A DNA stretch of 64,000 nt, from the IMG/VR virus record IMGVR_UViG_3300028048_000042. One strand, 5' to 3'. The DNA comes from a virus. Lineage: Duplodnaviria; Caudoviricetes. The position numbers and the translations under genes are program-made. The notes under the pieces are model-generated. The model saw only the letters and a program-made list of their open reading frames with translations. It did no database searches and was not told the origin of the DNA. This document shows, in pieces, positions 3,021-58,743 of this stretch (position 1 is its first letter; every line of letters starts with the position of its first letter).

Positions 3021-3242
3021 TATAAAAATGACAACAAAAATTTTTGTTGTCATTTTTTTTAATACAAAACAATAAATTGTGTGATATTATTTTTTATTGC
3101 ATAATATTGGAGAATAAAAACAAAATACAAATATATTAAATATATTCTTAATATATTACCAAGGCAATATGACAATCTGTGAGGGATAATTTTGTATTTA
3201 GTATTTGGAAAATCAAAATAATTCATGGAGGTTTGAGTTTAT

Positions 3243-3602
3243 ATGGAATTAGGATTCGGAGTTCAAATTTTCCTTATTATCTTTCAAGCACTTGCGGCTA
3301 TGGTTACTGCTTATATCGGCATTCGTGTAAGGAGACATGATAGCGAGAAAGAGCAACAAAAGAAGGAAAAAGAGATTGAAGAAAAAGCGTTGAAGCATGG
3401 TTTGCAAGCAGTTCTTAGGGATAGAATTTTGCAGGCGTGTGCTTTGTATCAACGTAAAGGCTGTATTACAGTCTCACAGATGGATAATTTAAGTAATATG
3501 TATAACGCATATCACAATTTGGGTGGTAACGGAGTTGTGACAAATGTGTATTTACAGGTAATGGACTTGGAAAAGGATGTGGAAAGTAATGATGTGGTGT
3601 GA
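3243..3602 (+). CDS. holin-like / lysis-associated membrane protein
   Basis: N-terminal TM helix, coiled coil and Y-H-N-L-G-G-N-G motif typical of a common Bacillota phage holin-associated family. Confidence 0.6.
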   Translation: MELGFGVQIFLIIFQALAAMVTAYIGIRVRRHDSEKEQQKKEKEIEEKALKHGLQAVLRDRILQACALYQRKGCITVSQMDNLSNMYNAYHNLGGNGVVTNVYLQVMDLEKDVESNDVV

Positions 3603-3632
3603 ATAGAATAACTATTTTTTTTTCACCTTTAG

Positions 3633-3661
3633 TTTACACAAAATGCAAACAGACATATAAT
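3633..3661 (+). promoter_or_regulatory. sigmaA-type promoter (unit 1)
   Basis: TTTACA-17-TATAAT. Confidence 0.7.
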
Positions 3662-3667
3662 ATTAAT

Positions 3668-3781
3668 GTAAACATTTTACATATTTCCTTGATTATCTTG
3701 ATTTTTACAAAAAATTCGATTTGTGCAAAATAGTATCTTTCTACCTTTATCAACTGTTTTGTACAAATCGAAATTTTTTTT
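3668..3781 (+). ncRNA. candidate small RNA 1
   Basis: promoter, conserved 5' GUAAACAUUUU leader, long hairpin with UCUACCUUU loop, U-tract; no ORF. Confidence 0.5.
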
Positions 3782-3790
3782 GCAAATTAG

Positions 3791-3819
3791 TTATACAAAA
3801 ATGCAAATAGACATATAAT
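3791..3819 (+). promoter_or_regulatory. sigmaA-type promoter (unit 2, duplicate of unit 1)
   Basis: TTATAC-17-TATAAT inside an approx 60-bp direct repeat of unit 1. Confidence 0.6.
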
Positions 3820-3825
3820 AACAAT

Positions 3826-3921
3826 GTAAACATTTTATACATTTCTTTTTGATACAGGGTTCTGCATTAAATAATTGTTTTTCATCTACCTTTTTAACAA
3901 TTGTTTGACAGAACCCTTTTT
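3826..3921 (+). ncRNA. candidate small RNA 2 (paralog of sRNA 1)
   Basis: same 5' leader and UCUACCUUU loop; different stem sequence (agggttctg...cagaaccct) with U-tract. Confidence 0.5.
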
Positions 3922-3933
3922 CGTTAGGAGGAA

Positions 3934-4308
3934 ATGAAATTGAATATAGAAGATTTAATGAAAGCAAAATCTGACGGTGAACGTCATGATGATATGAAGG
4001 TTCAGGAAATGCTTGATGGTGAAACAAAAATTGAAAGCAATGAATTTGGAAGCACTATTAAGACTGAACAAGGTGATTTGAACATTCAAGGAAGACCACA
4101 GCAAATTCAAATCAATATACCACGTTGTGAGTTGTGTGGACGAATTGGTGACAAGCAACGACCTCTGTTTACAATAGATGGAGAAAAATATATCTGTAAA
4201 CCATGTTTGATTTATGGATTCAGAACTATGCTCTTAAATGGGGTAAATATGCCAACGATTGAGGAAATGAGTAATGAACAAGAAAAATTTGATGCCTATA
4301 AGTATTAA
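3934..4308 (+). CDS. C4 zinc-finger protein, ClpX N-terminal zinc-binding-domain-like
   Basis: CELCG...YICKPC resembles the ClpX ZBD pattern CSFCG...YICxxC; aggagg SD. Confidence 0.55.
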   Translation: MKLNIEDLMKAKSDGERHDDMKVQEMLDGETKIESNEFGSTIKTEQGDLNIQGRPQQIQINIPRCELCGRIGDKQRPLFTIDGEKYICKPCLIYGFRTMLLNGVNMPTIEEMSNEQEKFDAYKY

Positions 4309-4849
4309 GGTTCTTGATGTTTTAAAAGAGGAACAGATTCAAGATGAAGAAGTTCTTGAAGTGTTGAAAAATGTTTACAATAATATTGCCGCAGCTACAA
4401 GTTATTCCATTGATGTAGAAGAAATTTATTTTAATCTTCTAAAAGATACTGTTTGGTATAATCTTGAAAAAGGTTCGACCAAGACATTATCAAATTATGG
4501 TAGTAAATATATAACTTTTATGAATGCTTTTGAAGATGATAATATTATAAAAAATGAAGATATAGATTCTTTCTTGAAAAATTTGAAAGAAATTAAATCG
4601 AAGTTAAATGATAATAGCATTTTGGCTAGTTTGTCAGGTGCAGAAGATTTATTTGTTCAGACAACACCTGTATATTTCGTTGGACAAAAAGCAAAAAAGA
4701 AAAAAAATTCTGTAATTTGCAGAGCTGAAAATGCTATTGGGTCTTGCCATATGGAGAAGATTAAATTATTTTCTATTTTGGATGGATTCATTGAAAAGTC
4801 AGAAAAAGCATTACAAACAGGTGGATATATTGAAGTTAATTTCCATTAA
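4274..4849 (+). CDS. hypothetical protein
   Basis: 191 aa ORF with SD, overlapping upstream gene. Confidence 0.6.
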   Translation: MNKKNLMPISIKVLDVLKEEQIQDEEVLEVLKNVYNNIAAATSYSIDVEEIYFNLLKDTVWYNLEKGSTKTLSNYGSKYITFMNAFEDDNIIKNEDIDSFLKNLKEIKSKLNDNSILASLSGAEDLFVQTTPVYFVGQKAKKKKNSVICRAENAIGSCHMEKIKLFSILDGFIEKSEKALQTGGYIEVNFH

Positions 4850-5427: not shown

Positions 5428-5607
5428 ATGACAAGAAAAGAATCAATTTTAGAAGAATTAAAAAATGATGATGAAAAACTTATTCTTCTTTTAGCTTTGG
5501 CTACTTGTTATAAAGATGTGCTTGAAAAAGCGAAGAAGGATGAAGAATATAAAGATGTTCTTGAAGAAAAAATCAAGGAATTAAATGAAGAAATTGGTGA
5601 AGGTTGA
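5428..5607 (+). CDS. small coiled-coil hypothetical protein (not in ORF track)
   Basis: 59 aa ORF MTRKESILEELKND... filling the gap, agagga SD. Confidence 0.6.
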   Translation: MTRKESILEELKNDDEKLILLLALATCYKDVLEKAKKDEEYKDVLEEKIKELNEEIGEG

Positions 5608-5613
5608 GTTAGT

Positions 5614-13024: not shown

Positions 13025-13075
13025 ATAATCAAACGAAATCAAGATAAAACTTATAAAAAAAGGAGATTGTATAAA

Positions 13076-13882
13076 ATGTTGACGAAGGTAGCAGAAAAGA
13101 GATTTGCAAACGGTGTTGTATATGCATTGAGAACGGAAGATGGGTATCTGATTGAAACCACTGATACTTTCCTTCCTTACTATACTAAGGATGCTATTGG
13201 GAGAAAGCAGAATTTCCTTAATAACAAGGATTTGGGTTCGCGTAAAGAGCGTTGGATGATTGGAGTTTCAACCATGAGTGGCTGTTGTGTTGGTTGCCAA
13301 TTCTGCGCCACTGGTAATATGAAGAAATTCCGCAATTTGACGGCTGATGAAATTGTAGAACAGGTAGAGTTCATTATCGGCACTCACAATACCCCTGAGA
13401 CTCGTCAGAATCCCTCAGAATCGCTTGAATTTAAGATTAACTATACTCGTATGGGTGAACCGTTCCTCAACATTCAGAACGTGCGAGAAGCGATTACACG
13501 GCTTGATAAAGAATTGTCTGATACCAAAATCCACCATTATATCTCTACGATTGGAATTAAAGGTAGTGATTTTTCTTGGATTAAAGACAATATCACGTTG
13601 CAGATTTCTTTGCATAGCCTTGATGATGAACGTAGAAACAATTTGATTCCTATTAAAGGGAAAATGACAATTGAAGAGCTTGGTCAGATTCGTACCAAAT
13701 CTAATTTGAAAACAACTATCAATATGACATTGGTAGATGAAAAAGATTTTGACATTGATAAAATGAAGAAGTATTTTGACCCCAAATATTTCTTTGTAAA
13801 ACTGTCACCTATCAACGAAAACAATATTTCAAAGAAAAATCATATGGGGAAAGGAATCATTGAAGGGGTGAATATTGTTTGA
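13076..13882 (+). CDS. RlmN/Cfr-like radical SAM enzyme, N-terminal (large) part lacking the C-terminal AACGQL segment
   Basis: VSTMSGCCVGCQFCATG, RNLTADEIVEQ, MGEP, IST.G and ISLH motifs; start at ATG 13076 after aaggag SD. Confidence 0.85.
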   Translation: MLTKVAEKRFANGVVYALRTEDGYLIETTDTFLPYYTKDAIGRKQNFLNNKDLGSRKERWMIGVSTMSGCCVGCQFCATGNMKKFRNLTADEIVEQVEFIIGTHNTPETRQNPSESLEFKINYTRMGEPFLNIQNVREAITRLDKELSDTKIHHYISTIGIKGSDFSWIKDNITLQISLHSLDDERRNNLIPIKGKMTIEELGQIRTKSNLKTTINMTLVDEKDFDIDKMKKYFDPKYFFVKLSPINENNISKKNHMGKGIIEGVNIV

Positions 13883-19526: not shown

Positions 19527-21620
19527 TTATCTCCATCTATATCTTCCATGACCTGCTTTTGGCATAGTGGAGCGTTGACCTGAATTCGTAGCGAAGTTAG
19601 CCAAAACGTCAGCATCACAAACGTCATCATGATAACCTGAAGGGGCTTCAATTTTTTTATTAACAGAAAAACCTGTAGTAGTCTGTTCAAGGTCAGCCCA
19701 TTCACCAATCATACGGTGATAATAATTAACGTTATCTTTACCTGCGCATTTTGTTGGTGAATTTAAGAATCTTTCTTTTGTAGGGTAGAAGAAACGACCA
19801 TTATCAAGTTCTTGTCGCCATTTGCCGTACATGGCATTTTTCATATTCATACCTGAATTGGTATATCTATCACGAGAGTTGAAGATGATACCTTCTACAT
19901 TACGCATACCATATTCATCTTGTAAAGTTTGAACAACTGCCGCACCACAGCCTGTATAATCAGCAAAGATTTTTGAACATTTAAATCTAGGATTTGCGCC
20001 ACCTAAAAGTCCTGCTATATAGTACATTTGTTCAGGATAAGTAGCATCTTTAAATTCTTTACCAAATACTTTATTTTTAGTACCATCACGATTAATACGA
20101 AGGACAGAGATTTGGGTAGCATCACCTTCAGGATTAGCACCTGCAAAGTCGATACCTGCCACATAATGTTCACCAATAATACCGTGGTCTAGCCAATCGA
20201 ATTCACCTGAACGCATTTTATCTACTTGAACTGAAGTAAGGAATTTACCTGCGCCATCAATGAATTCAAGCATGTACTGAGTACGGAAGTCTTCAATATC
20301 CAAGTTTCCTTCTGTCCAAACTTCAGGATTATTTGGGAACATTTCTTCTTTTAGAGCTTTAGGCATTGCCTGCTCTACAATAAACTTTGAATACGGACGA
20401 ACGATACCTGTTTTGGGGTCAGGAAGATAAATAGCACCCAAAGCCCAAGATTGAGCACATTGAGTCCAATCACGTTTAATAACAGTCCATTTATTACTAG
20501 CTTTACCTTCTACACAGTCATAGAAATGATTTCTAGTTTTAGGAGTACCAATTTTGACCAACTTAGCGTTTGTAGCACCGCCCATAGGTACAATTCGCTC
20601 TGACCAAGTATAATCAGAAACTTTTTGAGCCTCATCCAATACGATAACATCAAATGTCAAACCTTCGATATTGGATTGGTCAGAAGCAGAAACGGCACAT
20701 ACATAAGAACCATTATCTAATTCGACTTTATCTTTTGTTATTTTGACAATTTTGTGATTTAATTTATCTTCGTTCATTTGGAAGAATGTAGATAAACGTC
20801 CAATAGAAACTTCTGCCTGTTGCAAACGTGGTGTAAAAATACCAATGCGCATACAAGGGAAATTGTCAATTAAGAATCCACAGAATGAAGAAATAGATTC
20901 AGTGTTATGTACTACGGTATAGTCTTCAAGCATGAACAATTTATCTTCACTATCTAAGGTAAAACCGTAGTAATTTGCTTTTCTCTTTTTTACAACAATG
21001 AATCTATATTTTGTGAAGCTAGTTAAATCTTTAGACATTCTCCATCCAAAAAGATTTTCTCTTGTTTCTTTTTTTAATTTTAAATAATCTTTTATATTGA
21101 TATTTACAATATGATTATCAAAAGTCATCAATGATAAAATGTGAGACTCGTTAACTGTGTATTCAGAGTTATCAAAACCTTGAATTTTATACATAGTTTC
21201 TTTGCCACGCCCTAAATCAATAACTGTTGTGATATTACCAAATGGAGAAATTAATTTATCACCAACTTTGATGTCTTCAACTTTTTTTATTGATTTATCA
21301 GCCATCAAAATTTTTGTACCTTTGGCAAAGCATTTACCTGCCTGACGAGACATCATGCCTGCAACCATTTTTAATTTTGGATTGCAGACAGCACGAATAA
21401 GTGCTGTTTGATTCTCATGTAATTTTTGAAATTTTATAGGTAAATGACCACGTAATACATTTTCCACGTATTCAATAGGGTCAATTCGATTTAAAAATTT
21501 ATGATACATGAAATCATCTAATGGCATACCGTTAATTGTATTGTCTTGGCTTACTAAAGAGATTTCATCTTTGATTGCAGATACATTGTCTTGTATATGA
21601 ATCAATGAATTATTTTCCAT
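19527..21620 (-). CDS. terL: terminase large subunit containing a mini-intein
   Basis: SRQAGK|T Walker A, VLDEAQ Walker B, AGIDFA RNase-H nuclease motif, DYTGCG and HDDVCDA; start MENNSL after aaggag SD. Confidence 0.93.
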   Translation of the reverse strand: MENNSLIHIQDNVSAIKDEISLVSQDNTINGMPLDDFMYHKFLNRIDPIEYVENVLRGHLPIKFQKLHENQTALIRAVCNPKLKMVAGMMSRQAGKCFAKGTKILMADKSIKKVEDIKVGDKLISPFGNITTVIDLGRGKETMYKIQGFDNSEYTVNESHILSLMTFDNHIVNINIKDYLKLKKETRENLFGWRMSKDLTSFTKYRFIVVKKRKANYYGFTLDSEDKLFMLEDYTVVHNTESISSFCGFLIDNFPCMRIGIFTPRLQQAEVSIGRLSTFFQMNEDKLNHKIVKITKDKVELDNGSYVCAVSASDQSNIEGLTFDVIVLDEAQKVSDYTWSERIVPMGGATNAKLVKIGTPKTRNHFYDCVEGKASNKWTVIKRDWTQCAQSWALGAIYLPDPKTGIVRPYSKFIVEQAMPKALKEEMFPNNPEVWTEGNLDIEDFRTQYMLEFIDGAGKFLTSVQVDKMRSGEFDWLDHGIIGEHYVAGIDFAGANPEGDATQISVLRINRDGTKNKVFGKEFKDATYPEQMYYIAGLLGGANPRFKCSKIFADYTGCGAAVVQTLQDEYGMRNVEGIIFNSRDRYTNSGMNMKNAMYGKWRQELDNGRFFYPTKERFLNSPTKCAGKDNVNYYHRMIGEWADLEQTTTGFSVNKKIEAPSGYHDDVCDADVLANFATNSGQRSTMPKAGHGRYRWR
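20904..21332 (-). mobile_element. mini-intein (143 aa, no homing endonuclease) in the terminase Walker A motif
   Basis: begins CFAKGT, has block B TVNESH, ends VVHN followed by T. Confidence 0.92.
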
Positions 21621-21716
21621 ATAATATTGCTCTCCTTTTGTAAAAGGTTTTAACATAAAAAATATAACAGTTTCTATATTTTTTATGTGGTATAATGAAA
21701 AAAAATTCATGGAGGT

Positions 21717-22133
21717 TTGTATATGATAAGTATATATCAAAAATTCAAAGAAACAATGAAAGAATTATCGAAAAAAGCAGAAATTACTTGGATAAAAAAT
21801 AATTATACTCCTTTAAATGGTGTAGGAGTAAAAGGAACATGGAATATCAACGTAACAGGAAATGCAGGTAGTGCAGATGTTGTCTCATGGGATGGTATTG
21901 AAAATAAACCAACATCTTTTACTCCTGTGCCACATAATCATGATAGCTCTTATCCTTCAAAAATAGGTAATGGGGCAAGCGGAACTTGGAATATTAATAT
22001 TACAGGAAATGCCAAAACAGCCAATAGTGCAAATAATGTATCTTGGGAAAATGTATCAAGTAAACCAAAACTTGTAATTGTAGAATCGTTTGATAAAGAA
22101 AATGGAGTGCTGAAATTAAAAAGTTTAAATTGA
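21717..22133 (+). CDS. tail-fibre-like repeat protein
   Basis: two GTWNINxTGNA...VSWxxxxxKP repeats typical of tail fibres. Confidence 0.7.
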   Translation: MYMISIYQKFKETMKELSKKAEITWIKNNYTPLNGVGVKGTWNINVTGNAGSADVVSWDGIENKPTSFTPVPHNHDSSYPSKIGNGASGTWNINITGNAKTANSANNVSWENVSSKPKLVIVESFDKENGVLKLKSLN

Positions 22134-56995: not shown

Positions 56996-57027
56996 ATATG
57001 TACGAGATAAAAAAGGAGGTCTATAAG

Positions 57028-58743
57028 ATGTTTAAAAAACACTTTCCGTATAAAAATATACGTCCCACACAAGAGGATATATTGGAAAGCTTGGATAAGA
57101 TTTACAATTCACCAAAGAAATATCGTTATATTGTAATTGAAGCAGGTACAGGTATTGGTAAAAGTGCTCTTGCTAAGAGTATTTCAAATAAAGAGGGTTC
57201 AGCATATCTTCTGACAGCCACAAAACAGTTACAAGACCAATACGTTGATGACTTTGGTATGATGGGTGCTAGTGCTGTAAAAGGTGCTGACAACTATCGC
57301 TGTGGTGTTACAGAGAACATGACCTGTGGACATGGTGAGTGTGTATATGATGGAAGTCTTCGCAGAGATTGTTACTCTAAGAAAATTTGTCCTTACAAGG
57401 TTGCTAAAGAAAAAGCTGAAGCAAGCGAACTGTATGTGACTTCCTATGCTTATTTTATGAAAGCAAGTCGGCAACAGCGAATTGATGAAGAAGGTATTGC
57501 ACACAAGTTGATGAAAAAGCGTAATGCTATGATTGTTGACGAATGTCATATGCTCGAAGATATGCTGATTAATTTCGCAGGGTTTACAATTGTGCCTAGC
57601 GACCTAATTAAAAAGTATGATTTGGCAAATCTTCTTGATTTCAGAGAACTTGTTCTTTTTAAGAAACTTCCTAATCAAGATAATCAATCTGAATTTGATA
57701 AATGGGTAACTTTTATTAAAGGTAAACTTGAACAAAAAGTTGCCATTATGGAACAACAAATTCATAATTTTAAATTTGGAGATAGAAGTAATTTATCGGC
57801 AGATGAATTGACTGATATGAGCGATTTTGATATAACGAAAGAGTTACGTAAGGAAAATGTACTCACTTCGTTAATTGAAAAAATTAGTGCATATCTCCGT
57901 ATGACTGAAGAACAACGACAAGATTGGGTTCTTGATGTGAAGAAAGACTCTATTAGTGCAAAGCCAATTGATGTAGATAACTTATTTCAGAAATACATTA
58001 ATGATTTCGCTAACAACGTAGTAGTTTTTATGTCGGCAACTATTCTCGATAAAGAAACGTTCTGTAAAGACATGGGGCTTGACAAAAACAATACGGCATT
58101 TATTATGCGTGATGGAGTGTTTGAGCCTGACAAATCACCAATTGTATATATTCCTGTGGGTTCTATGAGTTATGCTAAACAGGCAGATACAATGCCAAAA
58201 ATGATTAAAGAAATCAAAGCATTGTTGGCACAGCATCCAAATGAAAAAGGAATTATTCATACTTCTACTTATGCCATTGCACAGAAGATTGTGGAAGAAA
58301 TTGATTCTGATAGGTTGTTGTACAAAAGTGATTTGAGTTCTAATGAAGTTCTGCTGAAAGAACATGAATTGAGTGAAAAACCGACAGTTTTGGTTTCTCC
58401 GTCTTTGATGGCAGGCGTAGACCTTCATGATGACCTTAGTCGTTTTCAAATTGTTGTTAAAATGCCGTATGTATCTTTGTCTGACGAACGAGTTAAGAAA
58501 AAGATGAAGAAGAACAATCGGTGGTATACTTGCAAAATGTTGAGAAACCTTGTGCAGGAATGCGGTAGAAGTACGCGAAATGAGAATGATTGGGCTGTTA
58601 CGTATATTCTTGATGAAACATTTACCAATGTCTTGAAGTACAACAAAAAATATTTACCACCATCCTTCTTAAAACGTGTAAGGGATATTGGTAATTTTGA
58701 CTTAGATTCATATTATGCAAAATATAAGGAGCAATCGAAATAA
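57028..58743 (+). CDS. DinG/XPD family Fe-S DNA helicase
   Basis: RPTQ, EAGTGIGKS, four Cys Fe-S ligands, DECH, MSAT, GVDL and QECGRSTR motifs. Confidence 0.92.
   Translation: MFKKHFPYKNIRPTQEDILESLDKIYNSPKKYRYIVIEAGTGIGKSALAKSISNKEGSAYLLTATKQLQDQYVDDFGMMGASAVKGADNYRCGVTENMTCGHGECVYDGSLRRDCYSKKICPYKVAKEKAEASELYVTSYAYFMKASRQQRIDEEGIAHKLMKKRNAMIVDECHMLEDMLINFAGFTIVPSDLIKKYDLANLLDFRELVLFKKLPNQDNQSEFDKWVTFIKGKLEQKVAIMEQQIHNFKFGDRSNLSADELTDMSDFDITKELRKENVLTSLIEKISAYLRMTEEQRQDWVLDVKKDSISAKPIDVDNLFQKYINDFANNVVVFMSATILDKETFCKDMGLDKNNTAFIMRDGVFEPDKSPIVYIPVGSMSYAKQADTMPKMIKEIKALLAQHPNEKGIIHTSTYAIAQKIVEEIDSDRLLYKSDLSSNEVLLKEHELSEKPTVLVSPSLMAGVDLHDDLSRFQIVVKMPYVSLSDERVKKKMKKNNRWYTCKMLRNLVQECGRSTRNENDWAVTYILDETFTNVLKYNKKYLPPSFLKRVRDIGNFDLDSYYAKYKEQSK

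Follow-up and report, generated by a model that had tools for sequence, protein, structure and literature searches.

Tandem small-RNA genes beside a holin-like gene in a phage G-like jumbo phage: candidate antisense regulators of phage mRNAs

A short intergenic stretch of gut phage DNA carries two successive promoter-hairpin units, raising the question of whether these are small-RNA genes and, if so, which part of the RNA is under selection and which mRNAs it might contact. The DNA analysed here (the window, 64,000 nt) is part of a 318-kb contig of a phage G-like gut jumbo phage. The capsid protein of this phage shares 77% identity with its Bacillus phage G counterpart; DNA near-identical to the window is present in cattle and pig gut metagenomes. 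The host probably belongs to the Bacillota, as judged from sigma-A-type promoters and from the taxa of homologues of a holin-like gene at the locus. The initial annotation had proposed that the units encode early trans-acting RNAs that silence host mRNAs through a shared loop motif, or decoys for an RNA-binding defence protein.

Two promoter-terminator units between two phage genes

Both units sit between a 119-aa membrane-protein gene on the plus strand (3243-3602; PHROG 4105), referred to below as holin-like, and a zinc-finger-like gene (3934-4308). The ATG of the latter, at 3934, lies just 2 nt past its Shine-Dalgarno (SD) sequence (3926-3942), and a TTG at 3940 is the likelier start, giving a protein of 122 aa that matches the sister species. 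The gap that precedes the holin-like gene is a hotspot of insertion, with small genes that differ by strain (L001 2558-2869; L004 418-741; L008 387-527). Elsewhere in the window, a minus-strand gene with a Hint-type (Hom_end_hint) domain has a GC skew unlike its surroundings (19527-21740; L110 18385-20478).

The promoters, hairpins and U-tracts that had been described could all be located, each on the plus strand. Promoter P1 (3633-3661) has a −35 box TTTACA, a spacer of 17 nt and a −10 box TATAAT, matching 11 of 12 sigma-A consensus positions, and is the top-scoring of 61 sigma-A-like sites within 10 kb. Its duplicate, P2 (3792-3819), matches 10 of 12; strains L021-L028 retain the −10 box of P2 and have its −35/spacer region replaced. 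The direct repeat, reported as approximately 60 bp, was found to extend over 75 nt with 79% identity between copies 158 nt apart (3616-3690 and 3774-3848). Long hairpins followed by U-tracts were likewise recovered, with a folding z-score of −7.2. Hairpin 1 (3709-3781) has arms at 3709-3734 and 3753-3778 and an 18-nt loop, and hairpin 2 (3856-3921) has arms at 3856-3879 and 3896-3917 and a 16-nt loop; both are predicted to be terminator-like. An A-run on the left side of hairpin 1 suggests that it may terminate transcription in both directions, and the U-tract of hairpin 2 ends 5 nt before the SD of the following gene. The predicted products, sRNA-1 (about 3666-3781, ∼116 nt) and sRNA-2 (about 3824-3921, ∼98 nt), agree with the lengths of approximately 115 and 95 nt expected beforehand, and both RNAs are very probably transcribed.

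The 5′ segment of sRNA-1 (3666-3706) comprises, in order, a weak 7-bp hairpin, an anti-AUG, an anti-SD (UUUCCUU) and a U-rich tract able to pair upstream of the SD; nucleotides 3683-3706 are predicted to be largely unpaired, and the first 17 nt of the RNA are palindromic. By comparison and folding, the corresponding segment of sRNA-2 (3824-3853) contains only the anti-AUG and anti-SD and has no upstream-pairing tract. Each unit has its own promoter and intrinsic terminator and holds no conserved open reading frame, as is characteristic of trans-encoded small RNAs: of the short reading frames overlapping the units on either strand, none is kept between species. A minus-strand mini-ORF starting at the palindrome was considered and set aside, being unconserved and interrupted by the hairpin. 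No Rfam 15 covariance model matched the units of the window, L010 or L020 at the gathering threshold, and the models yielded only generic hairpin matches far below it; in a comparison with RNA anti-CRISPRs, which are solitary repeat units, no Rfam CRISPR-DR family matched at E≤5. Resemblances to Cas12a repeats, cre operators and boxA do not hold across the five units.

Conservation of the 5′ segment and replacement of the hairpins

Strains of the same phage retain both units. The site is occupied by two units in a sister species (L007-L010, with 69-82% identity in the neighbouring proteins) and by a single unit in a third species (L020); the second unit of L007-L010 is of the reduced type, like sRNA-2, and L020 has none of this type. 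Conserved in both sister species are the −10 box, an RNA start four bases beyond it and the initial ∼40 nt of the RNA, so that the P1 −10 box and its 4-nt distance to the RNA start are retained in all three species. The terminator hairpins of the sister species are unrelated to those of the window and do not contain the shared loop motif. Conservation of the 5′ part together with replacement of the hairpins indicates that selection maintains the 5′ segment and the presence of a terminator but does not act on the loop, and the terminator hairpin is best explained as a replaceable stabilising scaffold.

The loop motif, TCTACCTTT, does lie in unpaired loops of both window hairpins, as claimed (3740-3748 and 3885-3893). 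It occurs just twice in the window, where 0.6 occurrences are expected by chance and 10 of 100 shuffled sequences reach two. The stems had been held to differ entirely, which would have made the common loop a sign of selection; instead, the two hairpins align colinearly from end to end (score 44, against 28.5 ± 5.2 for shuffled sequences, equalled in 9 of 2000), with single arms aligned separately giving no significant score (p 0.12-0.15). The colinear alignment indicates that the units are diverged copies of one tandem duplication, so the shared loop can simply be inherited. The initial annotation had itself staked the loop on its conservation in homologous loci, and TCTACCTTT is absent from the homologous units of L007-L010 and L020. 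Nor did the loop, as an anti-SD-like seed, find a ribosome-binding partner beyond shuffled controls (120/150 and 114/150 were as good), and nothing pointed to a role as a protein decoy. The loop is consequently very unlikely to be either a protein decoy or the seed that recognises host mRNAs, even though it is exposed, is better kept than the stems between the paralogues, is invariant together with the 5′ 41 nt across six strain variants that differ in stem 1, and could be a species-specific second site.

Among the strains, 7 of the 20 pairs of hairpin 1 vary and all remain paired, one having changed on both sides, in a comparison of six related sequences that does not exceed its shuffle control. 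These stem-preserving substitutions and the conservation in three species support small-RNA genes. The proposal of trans-acting sRNAs therefore survives in its first half, with promoter and 5′ segment kept in three species, and loses the loop as its seed.

A view in which the locus makes no functional RNA, being a duplicated promoter and terminator with a conserved stretch that serves as a DNA operator or a mobile-cassette inverted repeat, can draw on the palindromic 5′ end and on the ATGTAAA behind the −10 box, which also begins ordinary mRNAs in related phages. It is hardly credible given that conservation runs over 41 nt with indels and broken symmetry, and that the inverted repeats lie ∼150 bp and 220 bp inside the cassette ends; the variable spacing and G-U-type changes in L007 also fit an RNA, not a DNA operator.

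At the site itself, the 119-aa gene and the unit are inherited together: both are present in the window, L007-L010 and L020, and both are absent from L011, L012, L016, L017, L019 and L044-L047. In more distant phages a promoter stands immediately before the zinc-finger-like gene, or there is a further gene in between. Other relatives have at the unit site a 600-nt AT-rich non-coding stretch (L016 2400-3000; L044, reverse, 900-1500) that contains short tandem repeats as well as inverted repeats in its interior and has no relation to the RNA units. That the downstream gene directly follows a promoter in relatives that lack the unit, and that the last terminator here abuts the SD of that gene and leaves no space for a further promoter, might suggest attenuator or antitermination leaders gating read-through in cis into the downstream operon (3934/3940 onward). 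Such leaders are improbable, however: no alternative structure is conserved and the terminators are unrelated, duplication of a whole promoter-terminator unit suits RNA dosage, and the complementarity to the holin-like leader described below would be left unexplained.

A sequence model scored true units at 41-61 bits and gave no match above 19 bits in ten related IMG/VR virus genomes; pattern scans gave no match in viral contigs and a single unrelated intergenic chance match (L018) in metagenomes, and blastn matches in phages and plasmids were at chance level only. Overall, the units are best regarded as real, conserved and undescribed small-RNA genes.

Candidate mRNA targets of the 5′ segment

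The 5′ segment is U-rich and mostly unpaired, and its sequence corresponds to the reverse complement of a leader rich in A together with an SD and an AUG. Pairing was scored against the 81 ribosome-binding regions of the window (mean for sRNA-1 −13.0, sd 4.1). The best partners of sRNA-1 were the leaders of an RlmN-like gene at 13076 (−27.6 kcal/mol), a helicase gene at 57028 (−26.5) and the holin-like gene at 3243 (−22.1); sRNA-2 ranked the same top two (−22.3 and −20.2). The best value was reached by 2 of 300 dinucleotide shuffles and the second-best by none, figures that rise to 15 and 3 of 300 when the anti-SD and anti-AUG are held fixed. Like known sRNAs, these RNAs thus have a segment that is conserved, accessible and imperfectly complementary to the leaders of candidate targets, with moderate statistical support, and this 5′ segment probably acts as an antisense seed. 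The strongest duplex in the window (−28.4) lies within a 191-aa gene at 4274 (site 4340-4387), falls to −10 in a sister species and was dismissed as chance; its loss shows that chance duplexes of this strength do occur. The duplexes are imperfect and AU-rich. The search covered window genes, 64 of 318 kb, and the holin-like gene was the one candidate that allowed a cross-species test.

In that gene the pairing site (3208-3231, plus strand), a conserved leader element with the SD, is better conserved across the three species than any other block of the leader. Pairing with the cognate RNA was predicted at −22.1, −22.2 and −21.3 kcal/mol. Of 2000 shuffles with the anti-SD held in place, 3, 45 and 11, respectively, paired more strongly, in comparisons that are not independent. 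In L008 the leader has gained one A and the RNA two U, and the L008 leader pairs better with its cognate RNA (−22.2) than with the non-cognate RNAs (−15.7 and −14.7); this covariation amounts to one indel event. Pairing of sRNA-2 with the holin-like leader is poor (−9.9), and in the window strain the leader element can be folded into a local hairpin (3184-3224). Duplex strength and conservation together make it somewhat probable that the holin-like mRNA is a real target of sRNA-1.

The 119-aa protein has one N-terminal hydrophobic helix and gave no holin match in Pfam or NCBIfam. Homologues elsewhere adjoin endolysin-type genes (GH25, NlpC/P60-SH3 or CBM), and one is annotated as a putative holin; there is no endolysin gene beside the 3243 gene in the window. 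The description as holin-like is hence drawn from genomic context and not from a family match. About 40 other holin-like loci have no RNA module, and nearly all of them continue directly into the next gene. The 504-kb phage G005 carries two tandem holin-like paralogues (L126 1483-2476) with a hairpin-rich 200-nt spacer, in which no unit of this RNA family was found. The holin-like gene (3220-3240) and the gene at 21723 (about 21703-21722) have a common 16-nt SD context, part of which is shared by the G005 paralogues.

Candidate target 2 (13035-13084, plus strand) takes in the leader, SD and start of the RlmN-like radical SAM gene (ATG 13076), which has a TTGACA promoter and a short leader almost wholly covered by sRNA-1. 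No perfect complement of sRNA-2 in the window exceeds the 13-nt match across the RlmN-like start codon, and in strain L110 the paired bases are unchanged and only a looped-out or bulged A-run varies, being longer. Candidate target 3 (57003-57034, plus strand) is the whole leader and start of a DinG/YoaA-like helicase gene (ATG 57028) behind a TTGACA-17-TATGAT promoter; nearly all of its short leader is covered by the RNA, and the helicase leaders of relatives that have no RNA score −8 to −14. On predicted pairing, either mRNA is a plausible target, each put forward with slightly less than balanced confidence. Across the window, sRNA-1 has its longest perfect complement (15 nt) at 57673-57687, inside the helicase coding sequence and so in the same mRNA as the candidate helicase leader. 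Among the IMG/VR relatives G001-G005, only two of which are near complete, the RNA and the RlmN-like gene are both missing and the helicase is kept in all. The region 30-50 nt upstream of an AAA_28/thymidylate-kinase-like gene (window 5562-5613; L007 1875-1922) also pairs with the cognate RNA, at −24.4 in L007 with 15 contiguous pairs and −20.8 in the window; this site falls in coding sequence, is weaker in strain L110, and is possibly a further target conserved in two species.

One feature of the holin-like duplex points beyond it. An A-C mismatch, or bulged C, persists in all three species, and the same central C does pair in the RlmN-like and helicase leaders. The C is therefore perhaps kept for another target, and other targets, in the host or in the remaining 254 kb, may drive conservation. 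Taken further, the RNAs could be antisense sRNAs whose main target lies elsewhere, in a host mRNA such as that of a defence gene, in the other 254 kb or in a competing phage, with the matches in the window secondary or due to chance. The targets found do not fully explain the invariant C and the invariant 5′ eight bases, whose ideal partner begins AUG UUU ACA, and known phage sRNAs such as PreS, VpdS and DicF often target host genes (PMC12197685). We nevertheless regard a main target elsewhere as rather unlikely, since an exact 22-nt complement was found in 185,579 species genomes only at two unrelated sites, neither at a ribosome-binding site and both attributable to chance, and conservation and co-occurrence favour the neighbouring gene.

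The messages of hok and AapA1 fold back over their own ribosome-binding sites, and the holin-like mRNA could do the same if read through to terminator 1, its 3′ tail then covering its own ribosome-binding site in cis. A weak stop signal is all that separates the holin-like gene from the unit, and folding predicts the long-range pairing at >0.9 for L008 and at ∼0.5 for L020, but not for the window strain. Fold-back also accounts neither for the conserved promoter directly before the segment nor for the second unit, in which pairing with the holin-like leader is missing. It is unlikely to account for the locus, although it and pairing in trans can coexist.

Comparison with known systems and a possible timer of infection

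The reading we favour, by a modest degree of belief, is that trans-acting antisense sRNAs repress translation of the phage's own mRNAs. From early infection the host polymerase would transcribe two paralogous genes, reading each from a host-type sigma-A promoter to an intrinsic terminator, and the 5′ 30-40 nt of the RNAs would pair in trans over the ribosome-binding sites of selected phage mRNAs, blocking translation initiation. By covering the holin-like leader and SD, sRNA-1 would hold back a potentially membrane-damaging protein in the manner of a type I antitoxin, leaving it untranslated until late transcription outruns sRNA-1. Both RNAs may also damp sigma-A-driven genes, for example those of the RlmN-like enzyme and the helicase. 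A wider proposal, tentative and less probable, is that one sRNA family controls a post-transcriptional, multi-target regulon within the phage genome and times infection at the level of translation, the RNA being shaped as the reverse complement of a common leader/SD/AUG design and so silencing the holin-like and sigma-A-driven genes.

As in type I toxin-antitoxin loci, a neighbouring RNA is complementary to a membrane-protein mRNA. In the non-overlapping type I loci tisB/IstR-1, zorO/OrzO, shoB/OhsC and dinQ/AgrB (PMC4147584, PMC3919570), as here, the neighbouring sRNA is separately transcribed, its 5′ end is complementary over ∼18-20 nt to the leader of the membrane-protein mRNA, and duplicated RNA genes also occur. 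In contrast to those loci, the RNA described here lies downstream on the same strand and is not divergent, its pairing extends into the SD, further targets are likely, and there is no sequence similarity; the protein is not a small hydrophobic toxin peptide but a holin-like one of 119 aa with a soluble conserved domain. The locus would work like a type I antitoxin but is not classed as a type I locus, because of its same-strand downstream position and because the protein is no short toxin peptide.

The nearest functional precedent is PAK_P4as15 of the lytic Pseudomonas phage PAK_P4, a proposed repressor of lysis gene translation (PMC5563952). It too occurs in one phage and is missing in a relative; it is cis-antisense to an endolysin gene, whereas the RNA here is trans-encoded and pairs imperfectly. 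Other phage antisense RNAs are sar of P22 and OOP and aQ of lambda, with PreS, VpdS and DicF acting in trans (PMC12197685). These have their own promoter and terminator, as the present units do, and act by base-pairing, as is proposed here; sar blocks translation initiation of a phage mRNA. They belong, however, to temperate phages of Proteobacteria and are either perfect cis-antisense RNAs or Hfq-dependent regulators of host genes, whereas the present units come from a phage G-like jumbo phage, probably of Bacillota, and their candidate targets are genes of the phage itself. Nearly all phage sRNAs with a defined function are from temperate phages of enterobacteria and Vibrio, in a survey that makes no mention of jumbo phages or holins (PMC12197685); a 2026 review of jumbo phages gives non-coding RNAs one sentence, without mechanism (PMC13282480), and literature searches for this combination of features found no description. 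A same-strand, downstream, antitoxin-like layout would be missed by searches for antisense overlap. If the favoured reading is true, jumbo-phage gene expression would have an RNA timer open to direct testing, in the form of a trans-encoded RNA whose covarying target sites in the lysis-type gene of the phage itself can be named.
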